A stretch of 64,000 nt of DNA from an uncultured Blautia sp. (GCA_963927715.1 CAWVBU010000002.1:515550-579549), one strand, 5' to 3'. Positions 28,983-38,142 are shown, counted from the first letter of the stretch. Numbers and translations are program-made. The notes: generated by a model not told the origin, from the letters alone.

Positions 28983-29432
28983 ATGAATTCCAATCAGATT
29001 TTGCTGGGAGAACTCAATGCTGCAGTGAGCCAGTTCCGCGGGGTCTACGCTGCCTGGGCAAGAGAGAAAAAAATTCCCTACCATGAGCTTTTGGTGCTCT
29101 ACCGACTCTGGGAGGCGGGACAATGTTCCCAAAAGGAAATCTGTGATCTGTATCTGCTTCCCAAGCAGACGGTCCACAACATTATTCTACGATATCGAAA
29201 ACAGGGATATCTGGAGATGCTCTCTTCCCTGTCCCCGGGCCGTGAGAAAAGATTCCGGTTCACGCCCTCCGGCAGGAACTATGCAGCGAAGATTATGGAG
29301 CCATTGTCGAAGAAAGAGGAAGAAGTGATTCAGGAACTGGGGGAGGAAGCGGTGCGGAGCATGGCGAATCTGACCCGACGGTTCGGAGAACTTCTGCAGG
29401 AAAAACTTCCAACGGGAGGAGAGGAACTATGA
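28983..29432 (+). CDS. MarR family transcriptional regulator
   Basis: wHTH pattern SQKEICDLYLLPKQTVHNII...REKRFRFTPSG; ATG 28983 with AGGAG. Confidence 0.88.
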   Translation: MNSNQILLGELNAAVSQFRGVYAAWAREKKIPYHELLVLYRLWEAGQCSQKEICDLYLLPKQTVHNIILRYRKQGYLEMLSSLSPGREKRFRFTPSGRNYAAKIMEPLSKKEEEVIQELGEEAVRSMANLTRRFGELLQEKLPTGGEEL

Positions 29433-31114
29433 GCGCGGCGCGGACAGATCTCTTCGATTCCGACAACATCTGGAAGATTCTTCTGCGCATCGCCCCGCCG
29501 GTGATGCTGGCTCAGCTGATTCAGTCCATGTATAACATTGTGGACAGTTATTTCGTGGGACAATATTCCGGGGAAGGCCTGACGGCGCTGTCGGTGATCT
29601 ACCCCATCCAGCTGATCGTCACGGCGATTGCCGTAGGAACCGGCGTGGGCGTCAATACCCTGATGTCCAGATTTTACGGGTTCGGGAGAAAAAAGAAAGC
29701 GGACAAGGCCGCAGGAACCGGGACGGCTCTCGCAGTGATCAGCTGGATGGTTTTTGCTCTGATCAGTGTTTTGATCATGAGGCCCTTTGCCGTGGCTTCC
29801 TCAGAATCACCGGTGGTGGTGGAGTACACGGTGCTTTACGGGACAATTGTCTGTGTGGGAAGCCTGGGCGTTTTTCTGGAGAGTACCTGGAGTAAGGTAC
29901 ACCAGGCCGGAGGAAACATGCGCCTCCCCATGATCGCGCAGATTTCAGGCGCCGCCATGAATATCGTTTTGGATCCGATCCTGATTTTCGGAGCAGGACC
30001 GGTTCCAGAGCTGGGCGTTGCGGGAGCAGCCATTGCCACCGTTGTCGGCCAGTTTCTGGCGGCGGCAATCACCTCCACCGGATTCCGGCGTCCGCCGAAA
30101 ATGCGGGAGATCGCTCCTTATGCCAGGAGAATCTATCAGCTGGGATATCCGTCTATTTTGATGCAGATGTTGTTTACGGTGTATATTATGGCGTTGAATC
30201 TGATCCTTGCCGGATTTTCTGACGATGCGGTGACCGTGCTTGGTCTGTATTATAAAGTGCAGTCCTTTTTCTTTATTCCGCTGGCGGGATTGCAGACCTG
30301 TATCGTTCCGCTTTTAAGCTATACCTATGCGAAGAATTTTTACAGGCGGTGCCGGCATATCGTACGGAACTGTATTTTGCTGGCCATGAGCCTGATGGTG
30401 GTGGGAGTTGCCTGCTTTGAGTTGATTCCGGAATATTTGCTGCGGATTTTCAGTTCAGATCCGGAGGTGCTGCGGATTGGCGTTCATGCCTTCCGTATCG
30501 TCGGAATCAGTTTTTTTCCCGCGGTACTTTCCCTGATCTTTCCGGTGTTTTTCCAGGCGATCGGAGCGGCGCTGCCCAGTGTGATTCTGTCTCTGACCCG
30601 GCAGATTTTCTGTCTGATTCCCATTTTCTGGCTGTTTTCCAGAATTGGTCTGGGTTATACCTGGATCGCCTTTCCGGCTGCGGAAATGATCACCGGCGGC
30701 CTGGGCCTGTGTTTTTATCTGCGGCGGATCCATATGTGGGAAAAATACCGGGGAAAAGAAACGATAGCGAAAGAAAAGAAAGGAGTTTCTACTATGAAAA
30801 TGATCACGGCGATTGTCAGCAGAAAAGACGCGGGAGATGTCTGCGCGGCGCTCACGGAGGCTGGATATTATTTCACCAGGATTGCTTCCTCCGGCGGATT
30901 TCTCACCGCCGGCAATACAACGCTTCTGATGGGAACAGAGGATTCCCGTGTCCGGGATGCCATTGAAGTGATCCGGCAGCATTGCTCCAGGCGGGTGGAG
31001 AAGATTTCTTCGCCCATACAGCTGGCGACCCCGTCCAACGCGGCTCCCACGGAGGTAACGGTGGGAGGAGCCATTGTGTTTGTCTCAGACGTGAGCCATT
31101 ACGAGAAACTTTGA
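29429..31114 (+). CDS. MATE efflux transporter in frame with C-terminal DarA/PstA (PII-like c-di-AMP receptor) domain
   Basis: MATE: IQSMYNIVDSYFVGQY, NIVLDPILIFG..PELGVAGAAIAT; C-terminal 106 aa from ATG 30794: MKMITAIV..TRIASSGGFLTAGNTTLLMG..EVTVGGAIVFV. Confidence 0.85.
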   Translation: MSAARTDLFDSDNIWKILLRIAPPVMLAQLIQSMYNIVDSYFVGQYSGEGLTALSVIYPIQLIVTAIAVGTGVGVNTLMSRFYGFGRKKKADKAAGTGTALAVISWMVFALISVLIMRPFAVASSESPVVVEYTVLYGTIVCVGSLGVFLESTWSKVHQAGGNMRLPMIAQISGAAMNIVLDPILIFGAGPVPELGVAGAAIATVVGQFLAAAITSTGFRRPPKMREIAPYARRIYQLGYPSILMQMLFTVYIMALNLILAGFSDDAVTVLGLYYKVQSFFFIPLAGLQTCIVPLLSYTYAKNFYRRCRHIVRNCILLAMSLMVVGVACFELIPEYLLRIFSSDPEVLRIGVHAFRIVGISFFPAVLSLIFPVFFQAIGAALPSVILSLTRQIFCLIPIFWLFSRIGLGYTWIAFPAAEMITGGLGLCFYLRRIHMWEKYRGKETIAKEKKGVSTMKMITAIVSRKDAGDVCAALTEAGYYFTRIASSGGFLTAGNTTLLMGTEDSRVRDAIEVIRQHCSRRVEKISSPIQLATPSNAAPTEVTVGGAIVFVSDVSHYEKL

Positions 31115-31134: not shown

Positions 31135-31163
31135 TTGTCTTTCTTCTCTTCCGACCTTATAAT
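31135..31163 (+). promoter_or_regulatory. sigmaA promoter of two-component pair
   Basis: TTGTCT-17 nt-TATAAT. Confidence 0.65.
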
Positions 31164-31192
31164 AGGGAGAAGAGTGATACAGGAAGAGAGGG

Positions 31193-32710
31193 ATGATTTT
31201 GCCAAGACAAGAGACGAACTGGGGCTATATTGACTGGCTGGAAGAAAATATGGACGAGGACAAAACCGCGCTGAATGTGGGGATTGTGTCGATTGCGCCC
31301 CACGCCCATATGACGCCCCACATTCATTTCACCGAGCAGGTGCTCTACACCCTGCAGGGAACCGGCTACAGTCTGGTCAATGGAAAGAAAATCGATATGT
31401 CCCAGCCCAATGTGACCCTCCACTGGGAAGCGGGCGTGATTCATGAGATGTATAACGAAGGGGAGGACGAGTTCAAACACCTGATGGTTTCCTGCCCGGA
31501 TATTATGTCCTTTGATTCTCTGGACGCGGACAGCGCTGCTTCGTGTAAACTGAGCGAGGAGGAGAGGGAGGAGTATCTTCGCGCGGCGATCGCCGGGACC
31601 TGTGAACAGTTTCTGGATACGCTGCATTATTCCTATGTGATTTTCAACGCGGTGGGGAGACCGCTGAAGAGGACCCGGATTTTTCCGATTTTCTGCTGTG
31701 AAAACTGTCTGGAGGAAATTTCCGCCAATGTGGCGCCCTGTATGTGCCGCTATATCCGGTGCCCGTTTTATGAGGAGATGAGTTTCGAATGCTCCCATGG
31801 GGTGACGGTGTTCTGTACTCCGATTGTCTTCCGCGGAAACTTTCTGGGCTATATCCAGGGCGGTTATGTCCACATGCACAACGTCTCCGAGGAAGGGGTC
31901 TATGTTATGCCGAAGAGCTCCATCCAGGGAGCGAAGATTCTGCTGCGCCAGATGGTCAAAGCCATGACGGATTACTGCGAAGTCTATCAGTTCAAAAAAG
32001 AGCTGACCCGGCAGGAGACGGAGCTGGAAGACAACCAGCAGTATCAGGAAGTTCTCATCGCCAATCTGCAGAACGCGGAACATACCATGACCGATTTGAA
32101 GATCAATAACCATTTCCTGTTCAATACGCTGAATCAGATGGCCTCCATGGCGCTGGGCGGTGGGATGATTTCCCTGTACCAGTCCATCCTGGATCTGTCC
32201 CGGCTGTTTTCCAGCGCGCTGCGAAACAACAGCAGCATGGTGCCGCTGTCCAGGGAACTGGAATATCTGCATTCTTATCTGAAACTTCAGAAACTGCGGT
32301 ATGGGGAGAGCCTGCATCTGGATTTTCGCGTGGAAGCGGATCTGGATCTGGATCACTGGATGGTTCCCTTTAATTTTCTGATGCCGGTGGCAGAGAACGC
32401 GTTCGTACATGGATTCTCGCAGGAAGACGAGAAGTGGTTTTCCCTGGCCATCGCGCATAAGGAGGAAAAGCTGTTGTTTACGATGGAAAACAGCGGGGTG
32501 TGCGTGGGAGAGGAAGACTGCGCGGAGATTATGCGCAAGATGAAAGACAGCGCGGCCCACGGCCTTTCTATGATTTACTGGAAACTGCACGCGGTTTACG
32601 GAGACCGTTTTTCCATGGAGTTTTTCCCCGGCGCCCAGAGCGGAGTGAAAGTCCGTATCAGTCTTCCCGCAGAAGATCAGATTTCTGACAGAAAGAAGGT
32701 GGAAGCATGA
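31193..32710 (+). CDS. Soluble sensor histidine kinase: cupin + PocR-like + LytS-type kinase + HATPase
   Basis: Cupin PHIHFTEQ...HWEAGVIHEM; Cys-rich PocR-like FECSHG..FCTPIVFRGNFLGYIQGG; INNHFLFNTLN; ENAFVHG; no TM stretch. Confidence 0.8.
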   Translation: MILPRQETNWGYIDWLEENMDEDKTALNVGIVSIAPHAHMTPHIHFTEQVLYTLQGTGYSLVNGKKIDMSQPNVTLHWEAGVIHEMYNEGEDEFKHLMVSCPDIMSFDSLDADSAASCKLSEEEREEYLRAAIAGTCEQFLDTLHYSYVIFNAVGRPLKRTRIFPIFCCENCLEEISANVAPCMCRYIRCPFYEEMSFECSHGVTVFCTPIVFRGNFLGYIQGGYVHMHNVSEEGVYVMPKSSIQGAKILLRQMVKAMTDYCEVYQFKKELTRQETELEDNQQYQEVLIANLQNAEHTMTDLKINNHFLFNTLNQMASMALGGGMISLYQSILDLSRLFSSALRNNSSMVPLSRELEYLHSYLKLQKLRYGESLHLDFRVEADLDLDHWMVPFNFLMPVAENAFVHGFSQEDEKWFSLAIAHKEEKLLFTMENSGVCVGEEDCAEIMRKMKDSAAHGLSMIYWKLHAVYGDRFSMEFFPGAQSGVKVRISLPAEDQISDRKKVEA

Positions 32711-33399
32711 TCCGGGCGGTAATCTGTGACGATGAGATGGCCAGTCATTCCATTATCCGGTATCTCATCGAAAACGAAGGGCTTCCCATAGAAATCGTGG
32801 GAACCGCAGTCAACGGCCAGAGCAGTCTGGAACTGATCCAGAGAGAGCAGCCGGATCTTGCGTTTCTGGATATCCAGATGCCGAAGCTGGACGGTTTCGA
32901 AGTTCTGCAGGAACTGAGAGAAAGCAAGACGAAAGTGATTTTTATCACAGTGTACAACACCTTTGCTTACGCGCAGAAAGCGCTCCGCCTGGGAGCCTGT
33001 GACATCATCGAAAAGCCCATTGATGTGACGCAGCTGAAGGAGGCGATTATCCGTGCCATCGGATGGAATTTCACGGAAAATGAGACTCTGAACCGGGCTT
33101 TGCAGTATATTTACCAGCATTATTCGGAGACCATCACCATGAATGAGCTGGCAGAAAAGGCCTGCTGCACCCCCAGCCATCTGTCCCATCTGTTCCGGCA
33201 GCATTTTGATCTGTCGCCGCTTTCTTATATTCATAAGACCAGAATCGCCAGGGCTGCCCAGCTTCTGCGGGACGGCGCGAGTGTTCAGGACGCGGCGTGG
33301 CAGACCGGATACACCAGTATGAACCATTTCTATAAATATTTTAAACTCTATCAGGGAGTGACTCCCGCAGCGTACCGCCGCGCCCGCGGAGGAGAGTAG
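32707..33399 (+). CDS. Response regulator, REC + AraC HTH
   Basis: VICDDE, FLDIQMP, IEKPID; C-terminal LSHLFRQ..IARAAQLL..GYTSMNHFYKYFK..GVTPAAYR. Confidence 0.92.
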   Translation: MIRAVICDDEMASHSIIRYLIENEGLPIEIVGTAVNGQSSLELIQREQPDLAFLDIQMPKLDGFEVLQELRESKTKVIFITVYNTFAYAQKALRLGACDIIEKPIDVTQLKEAIIRAIGWNFTENETLNRALQYIYQHYSETITMNELAEKACCTPSHLSHLFRQHFDLSPLSYIHKTRIARAAQLLRDGASVQDAAWQTGYTSMNHFYKYFKLYQGVTPAAYRRARGGE

Positions 33400-33528
33400 A
33401 AATCCGCGGAAGGAATTCCCTTCTTGTCTGATCGCAAAAATGATATATTTTTGCACAAAAACTGCCATAGTTTCTTCCCCTTGTTTATGCAATAATGTAA
33501 AAAACGAAAGAACAGGGGGAAGAAAATC

Positions 33529-34977
33529 TTGAGTGATATCCTAACAAAAATTAATGACACTTTGTGGAGTATGCCTCTGGTTATTCTTGTGTTGGGCGCC
33601 GGCCTTTATTTTTCCATCCGGATGCTTTTCCCGCAGTTTCGATATCTGAAAGAAATGATCCGAAACATGGGACAGGGTTCCGACTCGGCAAAAGGCCTCT
33701 CACCGCTTAGGGCATTTATTTTCACAGCAGCCCGTACCGTTGGTGTCGGCAATATCTCCGGTATGGCGACGGCCATCTTCTTTGGTGGTCCCGGTGCCGT
33801 ATTCTGGTTCTGGATTCTGGCGCTGATCGGTTCCGCGGTGGCACTGATCGAGGCAATTCTGTCTCAGACTTACCGTCATACCATCAACGGAGAATACCGC
33901 GGCGGTCCTGCCTACTATATGGAACATGGAATCAAATGCAAACCGCTTGGACGCGCAATGGGAATTCTGTTCGCGAGTCTTACCATTCTGTGTTTCGTAC
34001 TGCTGGCTCCGACCACGCAGTCCTATAACATCACCCAGGGAATCGCTACCGCTTTCCATCTGCCGGTAATCGCAGTGGGCGTCGCGTTCACCGCGCTTCT
34101 CGGATTTGTTATCCTCGGCGGACTGAAACGGATCGGTGATGTGGCGCAGAGAGTTTCTCCGATCATGGCGATGCTGTATATTCTGATGGCAGTCGTGATT
34201 ATCATCATGAATATTCAGGAACTTCCGGGAGTCATCGCGCTGATTTTCAAATCCGCGTTCGGAACGGATCAGGTATTCGCGGGAATCGCCGGCTCCGCAA
34301 TCTCCTGGGGTATTAAACGAGGCGTGTTCGCCAACGAAGTCGGTGTCGGTTCTTCTGCCGTAACCGCAGCGGTCGGCGAGGTCAGCCATCCGGTAAAACA
34401 GGGCTTAAGCAACGCAGTCAGCGTTTTCATCGGTACCTTCTTTGTCTGCACCACATCCGCGATCATGATGCTGATGACCGGATGCTACAATGTTAGTGAC
34501 GGCGCGGACGGACTTATCTACGAAGGTCTTCCCGGTGTCGCTTATGGAAATGATTTTGTTTCCACCGCCATCGATACCGTAATTCCGGGACTGGGCGCTC
34601 CGTTTGTGGCGATCGCGATCCTGTGCTTCGCTTCCGTCGCACTGCTTGCTTACTATATGTACGGAGAGAGCAGCCTTCTGTATCTCTTCCCGAACAACAA
34701 GACCATTCACTGGGTAATGAAGGTGGTCTTCCTGATTATCATCTTCCTGGGATGTATCTTATCCGCGGATATGGTATGGACCATGGGTGATATCGGACAC
34801 GGCGTTATGGCCTGGGAGAACGTGATCGCATTGCTGATTCTCGGAAATCAGGGAATCCGTATCTTCAAAGATTATGACAGACAGCGTAAATCCGGCGTGA
34901 AAGAGCCGACATTTGATCCGGAAGCTCTGGGACTGGACGTGAATGAAGTGAGTGAGACCTGGAGAAAAGGAAACTGA
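33529..34977 (+). CDS. Alanine/glycine:cation symporter (AGCS) family transporter
   Basis: VGVGNISG, GGPGAVFWFW, YRGGPAYY, GIKRGVFANEVGVG, HPVKQG, FVCTTSA. Confidence 0.93.
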   Translation: MSDILTKINDTLWSMPLVILVLGAGLYFSIRMLFPQFRYLKEMIRNMGQGSDSAKGLSPLRAFIFTAARTVGVGNISGMATAIFFGGPGAVFWFWILALIGSAVALIEAILSQTYRHTINGEYRGGPAYYMEHGIKCKPLGRAMGILFASLTILCFVLLAPTTQSYNITQGIATAFHLPVIAVGVAFTALLGFVILGGLKRIGDVAQRVSPIMAMLYILMAVVIIIMNIQELPGVIALIFKSAFGTDQVFAGIAGSAISWGIKRGVFANEVGVGSSAVTAAVGEVSHPVKQGLSNAVSVFIGTFFVCTTSAIMMLMTGCYNVSDGADGLIYEGLPGVAYGNDFVSTAIDTVIPGLGAPFVAIAILCFASVALLAYYMYGESSLLYLFPNNKTIHWVMKVVFLIIIFLGCILSADMVWTMGDIGHGVMAWENVIALLILGNQGIRIFKDYDRQRKSGVKEPTFDPEALGLDVNEVSETWRKGN

Positions 34978-35041
34978 GTAAATTTTACATAAAAAAATAT
35001 AAAACGAGATGGCAGACAGCTGCCAGGAAAGGATGAATCAT

Positions 35042-36307
35042 ATGTTAAGACAAACAAGACTTACTGACCCGGAACTTGCGAAAATCGTCGACAAGGAGCT
35101 TGACCGTCAGGAAAAATGTATCGAGATGATTGCTTCTGAGAGTACCGTACCGGTTCCTGTTATGGAACTGTCCGGAAGTGTATTTACCAACAAAACACTG
35201 GAGGGATATCCGGGAGCGCGTTTCCAGGCCGGCGGCCAGGTGGCAGACGAGATGGAGACTCTCGCCATCAAACGTGCGAAAGAGCTCTTCGGAGCAGATC
35301 ATGTGAACATTCAGTCTTATTCCGGCTCCACCGCGAACTACTCTGTATTCGCGACCATTCTGAAACCGGGAGACAAAGTACTGGCGATGCGCCTGGATCA
35401 GGGCGGACATCTGACCCATGGTTCACCGGCGAACTGGACCAGCAGCATGTATCAGCATACGTTCTACGGCTGTGATCCTGAGACCGGAAGAATCGATTAT
35501 GATGAGATGGAGAGACTGGCCAATGAGGTAAAACCGAAACTGATCATCTGCGGCGCAAGTTCCTATCCCCGTCTGATTGACTATGAGCGCGTGGCAAACA
35601 TCGCGAAATCCGTGGGCGCGTACTCCATGTGCGATATGGCTCATGTGGCAGGTCTCGTGGCCGCGAAGATCATTCCAAGCCCGATTCCTTACATGGACTT
35701 CGTAACTTCTTCTACGACCAAGACCTTCTGCTCCGCAAGAAGCGGTATGGTATTCTGTAAAGAAAAATACGCGAAAGCTCTGGACAAAGGTTCCTTCCCG
35801 GGAGCACTTGGTTCCATGCACCTTCAGACGATGGCTGCGAAATGCTGGAGCTTCCGCTATGCGGCATCCCAGGAATTCCATGACACCATGGCACAGGTAG
35901 TGAAGAACGCGCAGCATATGGCAGAAGAGCTGATCAAACGCGGTTACAACATCGTGAGCGGCGGTACCGACAACCATCTTCTGGTTGTGGATCTGCGCAA
36001 CAAAGGTGTAACCGGACGTCAGATGCAGGATTCTCTGGAGAAAGCAGGAATCTCTGTAAACAAACAGGTGGTTCCGTTTGATACCGCGAAGCCAAACGTT
36101 ACCAGCGGCGTTCGTATCGGTCTGACTTCTGTAACCCAGCGTGGAATCAAAGAAGACGGCGTAACCGAAATCGTTGAGATGATCGATAAAGTAGTCAACG
36201 CTCCGGAAGACGAGGCAGTGATCGCCGCTGTGAAAGCACAGGCAGAAGCCTTCATCGCGAAATATCCTCTTTACACCAAAGAAGAGCTGGAGGAGCTGGC
36301 AGAGTAA
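35042..36307 (+). CDS. Atypical SHMT-family PLP enzyme, probably 2-methylserine (D-alanine) hydroxymethyltransferase-like
   Basis: SHMT fold (IASE, GGHLTHG, DMAHVAGLVA, SGGTDNHL, SGVRIG), but NKTLEGYPG replaces NKYAEGYPG and SSTTKT replaces TTTHKT. Confidence 0.8.
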   Translation: MLRQTRLTDPELAKIVDKELDRQEKCIEMIASESTVPVPVMELSGSVFTNKTLEGYPGARFQAGGQVADEMETLAIKRAKELFGADHVNIQSYSGSTANYSVFATILKPGDKVLAMRLDQGGHLTHGSPANWTSSMYQHTFYGCDPETGRIDYDEMERLANEVKPKLIICGASSYPRLIDYERVANIAKSVGAYSMCDMAHVAGLVAAKIIPSPIPYMDFVTSSTTKTFCSARSGMVFCKEKYAKALDKGSFPGALGSMHLQTMAAKCWSFRYAASQEFHDTMAQVVKNAQHMAEELIKRGYNIVSGGTDNHLLVVDLRNKGVTGRQMQDSLEKAGISVNKQVVPFDTAKPNVTSGVRIGLTSVTQRGIKEDGVTEIVEMIDKVVNAPEDEAVIAAVKAQAEAFIAKYPLYTKEELEELAE

Positions 36308-36413
36308 TCGGTAAATACGAATAAGTCCCTAAATTCTTTTATCTAAGCATAGAAAGCAGGAGCTGTCCTGAAAACATTCTTCAGTGCTCCGTTATAAACA
36401 AACATCCTAACTT

Positions 36414-36465
36414 GGGCGTTGCTCCATAGATGCGTCATTCATCTATGGAGCAACGCTCCCTTTTT
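36414..36465 (+). terminator. Terminator of AGCS-SHMT-like operon
   Basis: GGGCGTTGCTCCATAGATG-7 nt-CATCTATGGAGCAACGCTCCC then TTTTT. Confidence 0.85.
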
Positions 36466-36666
36466 ATTATAGACAAAATGGTTGTACAGATATCTTTTGA
36501 CCTTCATAACGTTCATGTCAAGTTTATTTTCAGATTATTGGTTTGAGTACATACATTTTACATATATTTTATATATATTACACTTGAATACGATAGATAC
36601 GAAATCAATATAAGAGTACAATAGCTATGAGTATATTATACTCTAAAAAATAAAAGGAGAAAGCCT

Positions 36667-38142
36667 ATGAGAGAGAAAAGGAGAATCTTGCACAAAACGA
36701 TGGCGGGTCTGCTTGTCATAGTTATGATGGGGTCCACGGCAGTGCCGGTTTTCGCAGCGCCTGAGCAGTATGCAGAAGAGACGGCTGCACCGGAAGAGCT
36801 GACTTCAGAAGAGGCTTCCCCCGAAATAGTGGCGGAACAGCCGGCGGAAGCTCTGACCGATGACGACTGGGACGACGACTGGGACGATGACCGGGATGAT
36901 GACCGGGACGACGACCGGGACGATGACTGGGATGACGATGACGACCGGGACGATGATGACTGGGATGATGCAACAAGAATAACTTTGAATTACAGTTCAC
37001 TGAAGTTTACGAAAAAAGGAGAAACCAAACGTCTGGTAGCGACTGTGCATTCCGATGATGACGATGATTCGGATGATATTGACTGGGAGAGCAGCAATGA
37101 ACAGGTAGCACGCGTATCGGATAACGGTCTGGTGACTGCGGTTGGTAATGGAACGGCGGTGATCTGGGCACAAGAAGATGACGCAAGGGCTTCCTGTACT
37201 GTAACGGTATCCGGAATCAAGCCGGATCAGGTAGAGACAATCAGTGTAAGAACCTGGGGCGCTACAGCCTTAAAAATTAGCTGGACTCCGTTCTCCGGTG
37301 TGGAAGGATACCATGTATACCGCGCAACGTCCAAGAACGGAACCTATCGCCAGGTGGCAAGGCTTCTTGGCAGTGATGTGAGTTCTTATGTGAATCGGGG
37401 ACTGACGACAGGACATACCTATTATTATAAAGTACGTGCTTTTAAAGATGGAATCTGCGGAGCTTATTCTCCGGTGAAGACTGGAAAACCGGTTCCGAAA
37501 CAGACTGTGGTTACGAAGGTTCAGTCCTGGGGGTTTAACGGACTGAAGATCAGCTGGAACAAAGTGGCCGGAGCAGATGGCTACAGGATTTATCGCGCCA
37601 CATCCTCTGATGGATCCTATTCTTATGTGGCCCAGATCAATAGCGGCAGTACTACTTCCTATGTGAATTCTGGCCTCACAACCGGTCAGAAATATTATTA
37701 CAAAATGCGTGCATTTAAAAAATATCAGGGAAGTTATCATTTTGGCGCAATGTCTGCGGTGAAGGGAGATGTGGCTCCGAAACTTAAACAGGCAGTCATT
37801 ACAAAAGCGGTTCCAGGTCATGAGAAGGTGACCCTGACCTGGAATAAAGTGAATGGCGCTTCCGGCTACCAGATCTATTACTGTGAAGCTGATGATGATG
37901 ACGACTGGGATTATGTGAAACAGTTGAAAGGAACCACTTATACCCATCGGGATGATGATTTGGACGGAGACACTTATCTGTACAAAGTACGTGCGATCCG
38001 CTTTGTCAATGGAAAGAAACTGTTCGGAACTTTTTCCACGCCTAAGAGCGTTCGTGTTCCGGACTATGATGACGATGACGACTGGAACGATGACTGGGAT
38101 GACGATGATGACTGGGATGACGATGATGACTGGGATGATTGA
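36667..38142 (+). CDS. Secreted protein: signal peptide, Asp/Trp repeats, Big_2 Ig-like domain, three Fn3-like repeats, Asp/Trp tail
   Basis: Signal ending VPVFA; ITLNYSSL..WESSNEQVARVSDNGLVTAVGNGTA; repeats ISW..GY.IYRATS..G.Y..GLTTG..YYYK.RAFK. Confidence 0.85.
   Translation: MREKRRILHKTMAGLLVIVMMGSTAVPVFAAPEQYAEETAAPEELTSEEASPEIVAEQPAEALTDDDWDDDWDDDRDDDRDDDRDDDWDDDDDRDDDDWDDATRITLNYSSLKFTKKGETKRLVATVHSDDDDDSDDIDWESSNEQVARVSDNGLVTAVGNGTAVIWAQEDDARASCTVTVSGIKPDQVETISVRTWGATALKISWTPFSGVEGYHVYRATSKNGTYRQVARLLGSDVSSYVNRGLTTGHTYYYKVRAFKDGICGAYSPVKTGKPVPKQTVVTKVQSWGFNGLKISWNKVAGADGYRIYRATSSDGSYSYVAQINSGSTTSYVNSGLTTGQKYYYKMRAFKKYQGSYHFGAMSAVKGDVAPKLKQAVITKAVPGHEKVTLTWNKVNGASGYQIYYCEADDDDDWDYVKQLKGTTYTHRDDDLDGDTYLYKVRAIRFVNGKKLFGTFSTPKSVRVPDYDDDDDWNDDWDDDDDWDDDDDWDD
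36859..36969 (+). repeat. Tandem 12-bp coding repeat GAY-GAY-GAC-YGG (DDDW/DDDR)
   Basis: About 8 units read directly; the TGG/CGG switch gives W or R. Confidence 0.9.
38062..38139 (+). repeat. C-terminal Asp/Trp coding repeat (DYDDDDDWNDDWDDDDDWDDDDDWDD)
   Basis: Read directly before TGA 38140-38142. Confidence 0.9.

Follow-up and report, generated by a model that had tools for sequence, protein, structure and literature searches.

A four-gene locus in an uncultured Blautia sp. is, on balance, best read as an inducible, folate-dependent operon for the breakdown of a 2-substituted serine (2-methylserine, 2-hydroxymethylserine or both). It lies in a stretch of 64,000 nucleotides (GCA_963927715.1 CAWVBU010000002.1:515550-579549), hereafter called the window, in which four co-oriented + strand genes at 31135-36470 encode a sensor histidine kinase, a response regulator, an alanine/glycine:cation symporter (AGCS) carrier and an enzyme resembling serine hydroxymethyltransferase (SHMT). 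A previous account drawn from the DNA alone (the sequence-only reading) had placed four open reading frames (ORFs) here, and all four were present on the + strand at the positions it gave; its interpretation, too, held wherever computation could check it. What the analysis shows directly is the gene and domain content, the residue pattern with its conservation and its counterpart in proteobacterial enzymes, the gene linkage, and paralogy in a relative. We infer substrate, product, folate dependence, direction of reaction, inducer and operator alike from comparisons of sequences and gene neighborhoods.

The ORF of the SHMT-like enzyme spans 35009-36307 (+ strand). The true start is probably ATG 35042, giving 421 aa, because a Shine-Dalgarno sequence, AGGAAAGG, is found at 35025-32, homologues are 417-421 aa long and tblastn matches begin at residue 12. 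The protein matched the SHMT family PF00464 (432 bits) and NCBIfam PRK00011 (505 bits, cutoff 335), and its membership in this fold of pyridoxal phosphate (PLP) enzymes is evident from the retained PLP lysine K229 and carboxylate-binding arginine. Residues are numbered as in E. coli SHMT, and alignments were made against solved SHMTs and the E. coli and Bacillus GlyA proteins. All substitutions listed in the sequence-only reading were seen: NKY to NKT (Y55T), RYY to RFQ (Y64F, Y65Q), THKT to TTKT (H228T), and (A/R)GPRGG to CSARSG. The last block contains A/R232C, G233S, P234A and G236S, with R235 kept. Further changes were N37S, Q100T, H123Q, L231F, Q261L, G263S, P264M, L265H, N347Q and S355K. 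Where housekeeping GlyA has the motifs YAEG..RYY and THKT, the window enzyme has TLEG..RFQ and TTKT. The retained residues are S35, E57, L121, H126, L127, S175, D200, H203, K229, R235, F257, P258, R363 and R372, among which we take E57, L121, L127, F257 and P258 to belong to the folate-side pocket. This set indicates that PLP chemistry, carboxylate binding and most of the folate side are intact.

The changes are shared by a whole clostridial family, which falls into one cluster at 50% in a search for representatives. The signature NKTLEGYPG..R(F/Y)Q plus SSTTKTFC(S/G).R. was present in each of the 120 top-ranking database homologues, whose identity goes down to 70%, in 31/31 variant genome loci, which represent distinct species, and in another four loci from metagenomes; about 150 clostridial homologues in all were covered. 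Fixed across the clade, it marks a family under selection and not a product of chance or a decaying glyA. N347, replaced by Gln in the window enzyme, is kept in most members of the clade.

A closely similar set of residues is found in proteobacterial 2-methylserine hydroxymethyltransferases (mSHMT, EC 2.1.2.7). The sequence-only reading had named NKTLEGYPG and TTKT as their signature, and this was right: in Pseudomonas hunanensis Teo1 the mSHMT of TRIS cluster II, read from the plasmid sequence, has NKTVEGYPGKRFH, TTKT and QGSAH, and its orthologues in Paracoccus, Ensifer, Shinella and Ruegeria likewise have NKTVEGYPG..RFH and TTKT. The characterized alpha-methylserine hydroxymethyltransferases are those of Nozaki et al. 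Both the clostridial and the proteobacterial clade have changed Y55T, Y64F, Y65(Q/H), H123(Q/A/S), H228T, G263S, P264x and L265H. Threonine 55 in the TxEG motif occurs as NKTLEGYPG in the window and in every member of the clade. At positions 228 and 263-265 the window has TTKT and G-S-M-H, and five proteobacterial sequences have TTKT and G-S-(L/A/I)-H. The two clades share the SHMT fold, the PLP lysine, T55, F64, T228, S263, a non-proline residue 264 and H265. They differ in that the clostridial enzymes have Q65 instead of H65 (RFQ or RYQ throughout the clade, the tyrosine being gone) and Q123 instead of A/S, together with an extra FCSARS block.

The likeness extends to the surrounding genes when the clostridial family is taken as a whole. 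A linked D-serine ammonia-lyase, folate one-carbon genes, an amino-acid importer and a dedicated regulator occur on both sides, the lyase and the folate genes in part of the clostridial loci and not in the window. The Pseudomonas plasmid cluster for TRIS degradation holds mSHMT, D-serine dehydratase, FolD, PurU and DsdX, and takes 2-hydroxymethylserine via D-serine to pyruvate (PMC10848231). Next to the alphaproteobacterial orthologues we found a LysR regulator, an amino-acid ATP-binding cassette (ABC) importer, D-serine ammonia-lyase, FolD and PurU. The proteobacterial module uses LysR, DsdX or an ABC importer, and PurU, whereas the clostridial one uses a two-component system, AGCS and the ATP-yielding formate-tetrahydrofolate (THF) ligase Fhs, in strictly anaerobic hosts.

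A second group for comparison is PbzB, FmoH, AsmD and XvbB (PDB 7QWZ), which make 2-hydroxymethylserine or 2-methylserine and are defined by TAEG..RYH as opposed to the YAEG..RYY of GlyA (PMC10098953). On superposition T68 and H78 take the places of Y55 and Y65 and make the pocket larger, and changing both to tyrosine (T68Y/H78Y) abolishes activity; in GlyA, Y55, Y65 and H228 are described as crucial (PMC10098953). The window enzyme resembles this group in having T55 and a non-tyrosine residue 65, the pocket being enlarged for a 2-substituent, and the chemistry that we propose would be alike, a THF-dependent hydroxymethyl transfer as on serine or D-alanine. Within the motif region compared, it differs by TLEG..RFQ in place of TAEG..RYH. 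PbzB-type enzymes are slow, work in the synthetic direction and sit in nonribosomal peptide synthetase (NRPS) clusters. FmoH in vitro acts mainly in the cleavage direction. The window enzyme is accompanied by an importer and a sensor system and, in relatives, by degradative neighbors. The same single change at position 55 has been engineered in S. thermophilus SHMT: in the account of Hernandez et al. (2015) given in PMC4761611, Y55T increased donor specificity towards D-Ser, and the wild type took only glycine and, less well, D-Ala. That enzyme is a laboratory point mutant used for aldol synthesis without folate, whereas the natural clade has at least seven further fixed changes.

Compared with GlyA (EC 2.1.2.1), the enzyme shows 45-50% identity over its full length, keeps the PLP- and carboxylate-binding residues and matches the same broad NCBIfam and Pfam models. 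It differs in that Y55, Y64, Y65, H123, H228, G263, P264 and L265 are replaced, in forming a separate clade and in having other gene partners. That it is not a housekeeping GlyA, as had been claimed, is supported by this clade and by Acetoanaerobium noterae, in which a canonical glyA (NKY, RYY, THKT and QGGP) lies 0.9 Mb from the variant gene, whose product shares 68% identity with the window protein. The Ralstonia GMI1000 glyA2, tried as a proxy for an alpha-methylserine aldolase, proved to be canonical.

Trees were built by neighbor-joining on about 390 columns, with bootstraps of 100 and 200 replicates that included a run without the signature columns. The clostridial clade was recovered in 96/100 replicates, and in 187/200 without the signature columns; the proteobacterial mSHMT clade was recovered in 99/100 and 200/200. 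A joint clade of the two was obtained in 0/100 and 0/200 neighbor-joining bootstraps, also with the signature columns removed, so that the clostridial enzymes probably do not descend from the lineage of the known proteobacterial mSHMTs. Together with a divergent Oscillospiraceae lineage (P0130), the clostridial clade grouped with Firmicutes GlyA in 141/200 replicates when taxon-labelled canonical sequences were used, and the mSHMT clade was placed among proteobacterial GlyA. The window protein is about 49% identical to the Pseudomonas mSHMT and 47-50% identical to GlyA of Bacillus or Staphylococcus. Solved structures agree with the trees: the best PDB match of the window protein was S. aureus 3PGY, that of the Teo1 enzyme was Burkholderia 3ECD, and the PbzB structure 7QWZ was not among the matches listed for either. 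Because the two clades never join and the clostridial one groups with Firmicutes GlyA, the two signatures are likely convergent and the clostridial lineage is probably independent. Should the neighbor-joining result hold, the same eight positions would have been reached twice, by separate lineages, which would argue that these positions set the function. P0130, a 417-aa protein from an Oscillospiraceae metagenome-assembled genome, is the sister of the variant clade; it has T55, R64, F65, T123, T228 and S263-L-H, and its NCBI name is 'aminotransferase class I/II-fold PLP-dependent enzyme'.

Gene neighborhoods were compared across 31 variant loci from distinct clostridial species, with three canonical glyA loci (L030-32) from the same scan. 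The kinase was found beside the variant SHMT in 20-21 loci, the regulator in 21 and AGCS in 20, with gene order and orientation shuffled. The association of the enzyme with its own importer and two-component system, on which the sequence-only reading had relied, is accordingly conserved in about 20 of the 31 genomes. The neighboring AGCS genes belong to two subtypes or more, with identities of 64-97% and 29-47%. D-serine ammonia-lyase (DsdA equivalog, 638 bits vs. cutoff 368) occurred in 8/31 loci, directly adjacent in seven; alanine dehydrogenase (Ald equivalog) in five, joined in two Lactonifactor loci by alanine racemase (Alr); Fhs in six and FolC in four. Fhs-FchA-FolD lies directly 3' of the variant SHMT in L015 and L017. 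An M20 amidohydrolase (TIGR01891) stands directly beside the enzyme in six loci (L007, L013, L017, L022, L024 and L033), mostly together with a DUF3100 membrane protein and a small membrane protein of 160 aa; it may be that the true substrate is delivered in conjugated form (N-acyl or peptide), or that these genes form a folate-salvage module. None of the partners of the variant SHMT was found in the three canonical glyA loci. Canonical catabolic glyA, as in the operons of Agrobacterium and Paracoccus seriniphilus, adjoins L-serine ammonia-lyase and not the D-serine enzyme.

The same partners were reached from the kinase. Four kinase homologues of 37-41% identity, chosen without regard to context, all had a variant SHMT, a regulator of the AraC type and DsdA as neighbors, this DsdA sharing 60-63% identity with the DsdA representative. 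Two of the four kinase-centered locus types (metagenome contigs L052-L055) have, after DsdA, a RidA-family (PF01042) imine deaminase and then GntR, an APC permease and a class-V aminotransferase. L056 and L057 have a DcuC/AbgT-like carrier in place of AGCS. The database holds only about 200 proteins related to the kinase. This family appears dedicated to variant-SHMT loci. Taken together, the clostridial neighbors point to D-amino-acid products and disposal of the one-carbon unit through folate. The sequence-only reading had named alanine as the product; since D-serine dehydratase is the commonest partner of the family, D-serine (from 2-hydroxymethylserine) would be at least as likely.

Residues 264-265 vary with the partner genes across L006-L058: I-Q or I-H was found in 11/12 DsdA loci, L-M in 4/5 Ald loci and M-H in the window, where H265 is as in the proteobacterial H265 enzymes. 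These two residues may determine specificity for a hydroxymethyl as against a methyl group, the association being confounded by phylogeny. One locus, L036 (Acetoanaerobium noterae 455460-476713), is unlike the others: leuA-, leuCD- and leuB-like genes precede the variant SHMT, and kinase, regulator and AGCS are absent beside it.

In the mechanism that we propose, the AGCS carrier would import the 2-substituted serine. A membrane-free kinase with cupin and PocR-like domains would sense the substrate or product in the cytoplasm and phosphorylate the AraC-type regulator, which would bind paired CACAA boxes and activate the promoter of the carrier and enzyme genes. The SHMT-like enzyme would then carry out a THF-dependent retro-aldol cleavage of the EC 2.1.2.7 type, in which THF takes up the hydroxymethyl group to become 5,10-methylene-THF. 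The remaining 2-substituent would fit the pocket opened by Y55T, Y65Q and H228T, where the residues of GlyA would otherwise clash with a 2-methyl or 2-hydroxymethyl group, and the product would be D-alanine or D-serine. By way of genes that adjoin the enzyme in relatives, D-Ser would be converted to pyruvate by DsdA and RidA, D-Ala to L-Ala and on to pyruvate by Alr and Ald, and methylene-THF to formate and ATP by FolD, FchA and Fhs.

Several points weigh against this proposal. The 64-kb window holds no DsdA, Ald, Alr, Fhs or FolD gene, and the downstream steps are for this reason borrowed from relatives; a complete route in this organism would need those genes elsewhere in the genome. No second SHMT gene was found in the window, the part of the genome that was covered. 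Position 65 is Gln, against His in all characterized relatives, and the clade has changes of its own (N37S, Q100T, L231F, C232, S233, A234, S236 and Q261L). The phylogeny is by neighbor-joining alone and is not decisive. AGCS, Ald, Alr and DsdA could by themselves constitute an island for the use of alanine and D-serine, in which case their linkage is no proof that the SHMT-like step feeds them. We know of no assayed member of the clostridial clade, and to our knowledge 2-hydroxymethylserine has no known natural source in guts.

The same chemistry might run towards synthesis, with imported D-Ala or D-Ser and methylene-THF yielding 2-methylserine or 2-hydroxymethylserine, either to dispose of D-amino acids or for the product itself. 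PbzB and FmoH are biosynthetic in their clusters, AGCS carriers are alanine/glycine carriers by family assignment, and 2-methylserine was 1.8-fold higher in colonized than in germ-free mice. We nonetheless hold this direction to be unlikely: no NRPS or other consumer gene was found nearby, the genes that recur beside the enzyme serve degradation (DsdA, RidA, Ald and Fhs, with ATP gained from formyl-THF), DsdA would destroy a D-serine substrate, and the in vitro preference of FmoH is for cleavage. Were it true, gut Clostridia would be a source of the 2-methylserine in animal metabolomes. An ordinary, diverged L-serine/glycine SHMT, serving glycine/serine fermentation or a path from glycine via serine to pyruvate fed by AGCS and Fhs-FchA-FolD, would account for the PRK00011 score, for the NCBI SHMT names of the homologues and for a carrier that takes glycine; Fhs-FchA-FolD with an SHMT and a serine deaminase also resembles the lower part of the reductive-glycine route, and the nearby M20 amidohydrolases could free glycine from conjugates. 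It fits poorly with the replacement of Y55, Y65 and H228 throughout the clade, all three being present in every canonical sequence examined, with a partner deaminase that is a D-serine enzyme where canonical catabolic glyA pairs with L-serine ammonia-lyase, and with the canonical glyA alongside the variant in Acetoanaerobium. It, too, we judge improbable.

Two alternatives do away with the transfer to folate. In one, which we consider quite improbable, the enzyme is a folate-independent alpha-methylserine aldolase that releases free formaldehyde instead of forming methylene-THF. Aldolases of this kind acting on the same substrates exist (PMC7918591), and folate genes are not next to the enzyme in the window. 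Yet the folate-site residues are kept (E57, L121, L127, F257 and P258, with N347 in most members), Fhs-FchA-FolD follows directly in L015 and L017, FolC recurs, and the release of free formaldehyde would come at a cost to a strict anaerobe. The other, which we find the hardest to credit, has the enlarged pocket catalyze a different PLP reaction on D-Ala or D-Ser, such as racemization or half-transamination, to feed Ald or DsdA with no one-carbon transfer. Both are established side reactions of the SHMT family with alanine, and the neighboring Ald, Alr and DsdA themselves handle alanine and D-serine. The Lactonifactor loci, however, already have a dedicated alanine racemase, E57 and the folate-side residues are conserved, and the folate one-carbon genes and FolC beside the enzyme would be left unexplained. 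The folate-dependent catabolic operon is the reading that we prefer.

Turning to the sensory half of this operon, the kinase (31193-32710, + strand) combines Pfam domains Cupin_2 (residues 31-99), a PocR-like sensory domain (137-234, a weak match) and the His_kinase domain PF06580, whose dimerization and histidine-phosphotransfer region (296-374) bears the histidine in NNHFLFNTLN. Pfam detected no HATPase_c domain in the window kinase even at E=10; the C-terminal end is a divergent ATPase region in which the N-box ENAFVHG is visible, and several homologues are recorded with PF02518 HATPase_c. The protein has no hydrophobic segment (maximum Kyte-Doolittle mean over 19 residues 1.2), so it would sense something inside the cell. 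The response regulator (32707-33399, + strand), the start of which overlaps the kinase stop by 4 nt, consists of a receiver and an AraC-type helix-turn-helix (Response_reg 92 bits, HTH_18 83 bits). The pair resembles YesM/YesN-type two-component systems in its PF06580 kinase core and in the architecture of the regulator, but differs from them in that the kinase is without membrane segments and takes its input through a cytoplasmic cupin and PocR-like module.

The regulator and AGCS genes are 129 bp apart, and the AGCS and SHMT-like genes 31 bp. The former spacer was aligned in eight species (alignment A1) whose AGCS proteins are 64-97% identical, and it is on this alignment alone that the boxes described here rest. 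The invariant columns lie in two C(A/G)CAA boxes and, downstream, in an ATAAT found in 8/8 loci. In the window the paired boxes, CGCAAAAATGATATA (33433-33447) and CACAAAAACTGCCATA (33454-33469), are 21 bp apart on the + strand (33433-33469), next to the -35 position, and are the candidate binding site of the AraC-type regulator. The ATAAT is preceded by TG and forms an extended -10 element, TGcAATAAT (33488-33496, + strand), the likely regulated promoter of the AGCS and SHMT-like genes. We infer that this layout is the one expected of an activator site beside a promoter lacking a -35 element. The AGCS gene (33529-34977, + strand) starts with TTG behind the ribosome-binding site GGGGGAAG; its product matched PF01235 (Na_Ala_symp, 450 bits) and TIGR00835 agcS (407 bits, cutoff 273) and has 98 hydrophobic windows, as a member of this family (TC 2.A.25).

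The four-gene set is bounded by a promoter-like site on the 5' side and a strong terminator on the 3' side. The former, TTGTCT-17-TATAAT (31135-31163, + strand), lies about 30 nt 5' of the kinase start and is a pattern match only, with 10/12 matches in a consensus scan. The terminator announced in the sequence-only reading is real: an intrinsic terminator at 36414-36458 (+ strand) has a 19-bp stem with 10 G-C pairs, followed by the T run CCTTTTTATT.

Knowledge of the EC 2.1.2.7 reaction dates from Wilson and Snell, as cited in PMC10848231. No publication on an enzyme or operon of this kind in Clostridia, or in any other anaerobe, turned up in our literature search, in agreement with the earlier statement that none was known from Clostridia. 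What was already known is the EC 2.1.2.7 chemistry and the T55/H65 hallmark; what sets the clostridial system apart is a probably independent lineage, a residue set of its own, a dedicated cytoplasmic two-component sensor and the proposed anaerobic disposal of the one-carbon unit. NCBI names the homologues serine hydroxymethyltransferase, and UniRef gives one Lactonifactor homologue the name '2-methylserine hydroxymethyltransferase', which may be automatic.

Hundreds of clostridial genes called 'serine hydroxymethyltransferase' are probably not glyA, which affects models of one-carbon and glycine/serine flux in acetogens. The two lineages with the same roughly eight active-site changes would constitute a natural experiment on how an SHMT is retuned from glycine to 2-substituted donors, and Y55T is the very retuning that biocatalysis groups engineer. 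Studies of human and animal plasma and faeces regularly list 2-methylserine, a metabolite with neither a known origin nor a known fate; a widespread gut-bacterial enzyme system directed at it or at 2-hydroxymethylserine would give this metabolite a biology and link it to D-alanine and D-serine, which are important in host-microbe signaling. It has been measured in faeces and, in one small study, was 1.8-fold higher in the brains of colonized than of germ-free mice; for these reasons a widespread gut system acting on 2-methylserine is worth testing. With considerable reserve, we propose as a possible wider picture that gut, rumen and sludge Clostridia independently evolved a methylserine-type enzyme with a cytoplasmic sensor, that this widespread system is a main microbial sink (or, in the reverse direction, source) of 2-methylserine and 2-hydroxymethylserine in animals, and that residues 264-265 tune the enzyme for methyl or hydroxymethyl. 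If true, this would imply an unrecognized natural pool of 2-substituted serines in anaerobic ecosystems, tied to the turnover of D-alanine and D-serine. Several cultured carriers exist: Lactonifactor longoviformis DSM 17459, Oscillibacter valericigenes Sjm18-20 and Eubacterium pyruvativorans i6.

The organism is a relative of Candidatus Blautia intestinigallinarum (L001), which has an enzyme of 93% identity within syntenic flanks, and the window sequence was found mostly in chicken-gut metagenomes. The runs that matched it best, X1 among them, are metagenome-like assemblies of low depth and do not represent an isolate. Low-depth, patchy contigs of a possible chicken-gut RNA run overlie parts of the locus, which is weak evidence of its expression. 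In run X1, two contigs skip 722-727 bases between kinase and regulator (window 32134-32857), with 22-24 letters on the short side; related kinase/regulator genes in other strains probably produced these skips as noise in the assembly graph. In PLSDB, several 'plasmid' records of 2-5 Mb (NZ_CP154629.1, NZ_CP069303.1 and others) are chromosomes or chromids, and the A. noterae chromosome is among the PLSDB records.

Nearly all real-looking long ORFs in the window are on the + strand, and the GC skew is positive along its whole length; long antisense ORFs (e.g. 31157-32590, 477 aa) shadow real genes and are artefacts. Upstream of the operon, 29429-31114 (+ strand) encodes a MATE efflux pump that carries, fused at its C-terminus, a receptor domain for cyclic-di-AMP (PF06153, residues 456-560), with an orthologue in L001; the fusion suggests an exporter under cyclic-di-AMP control. 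Just 3' of the operon terminator, a gene with its own AT-rich promoter region (36667-38142, + strand) encodes a secreted protein with Big_2 and three fn3 domains, both ends of which are long Asp runs with interspersed Trp and Arg (DDWDDDWDDDRDDD...).

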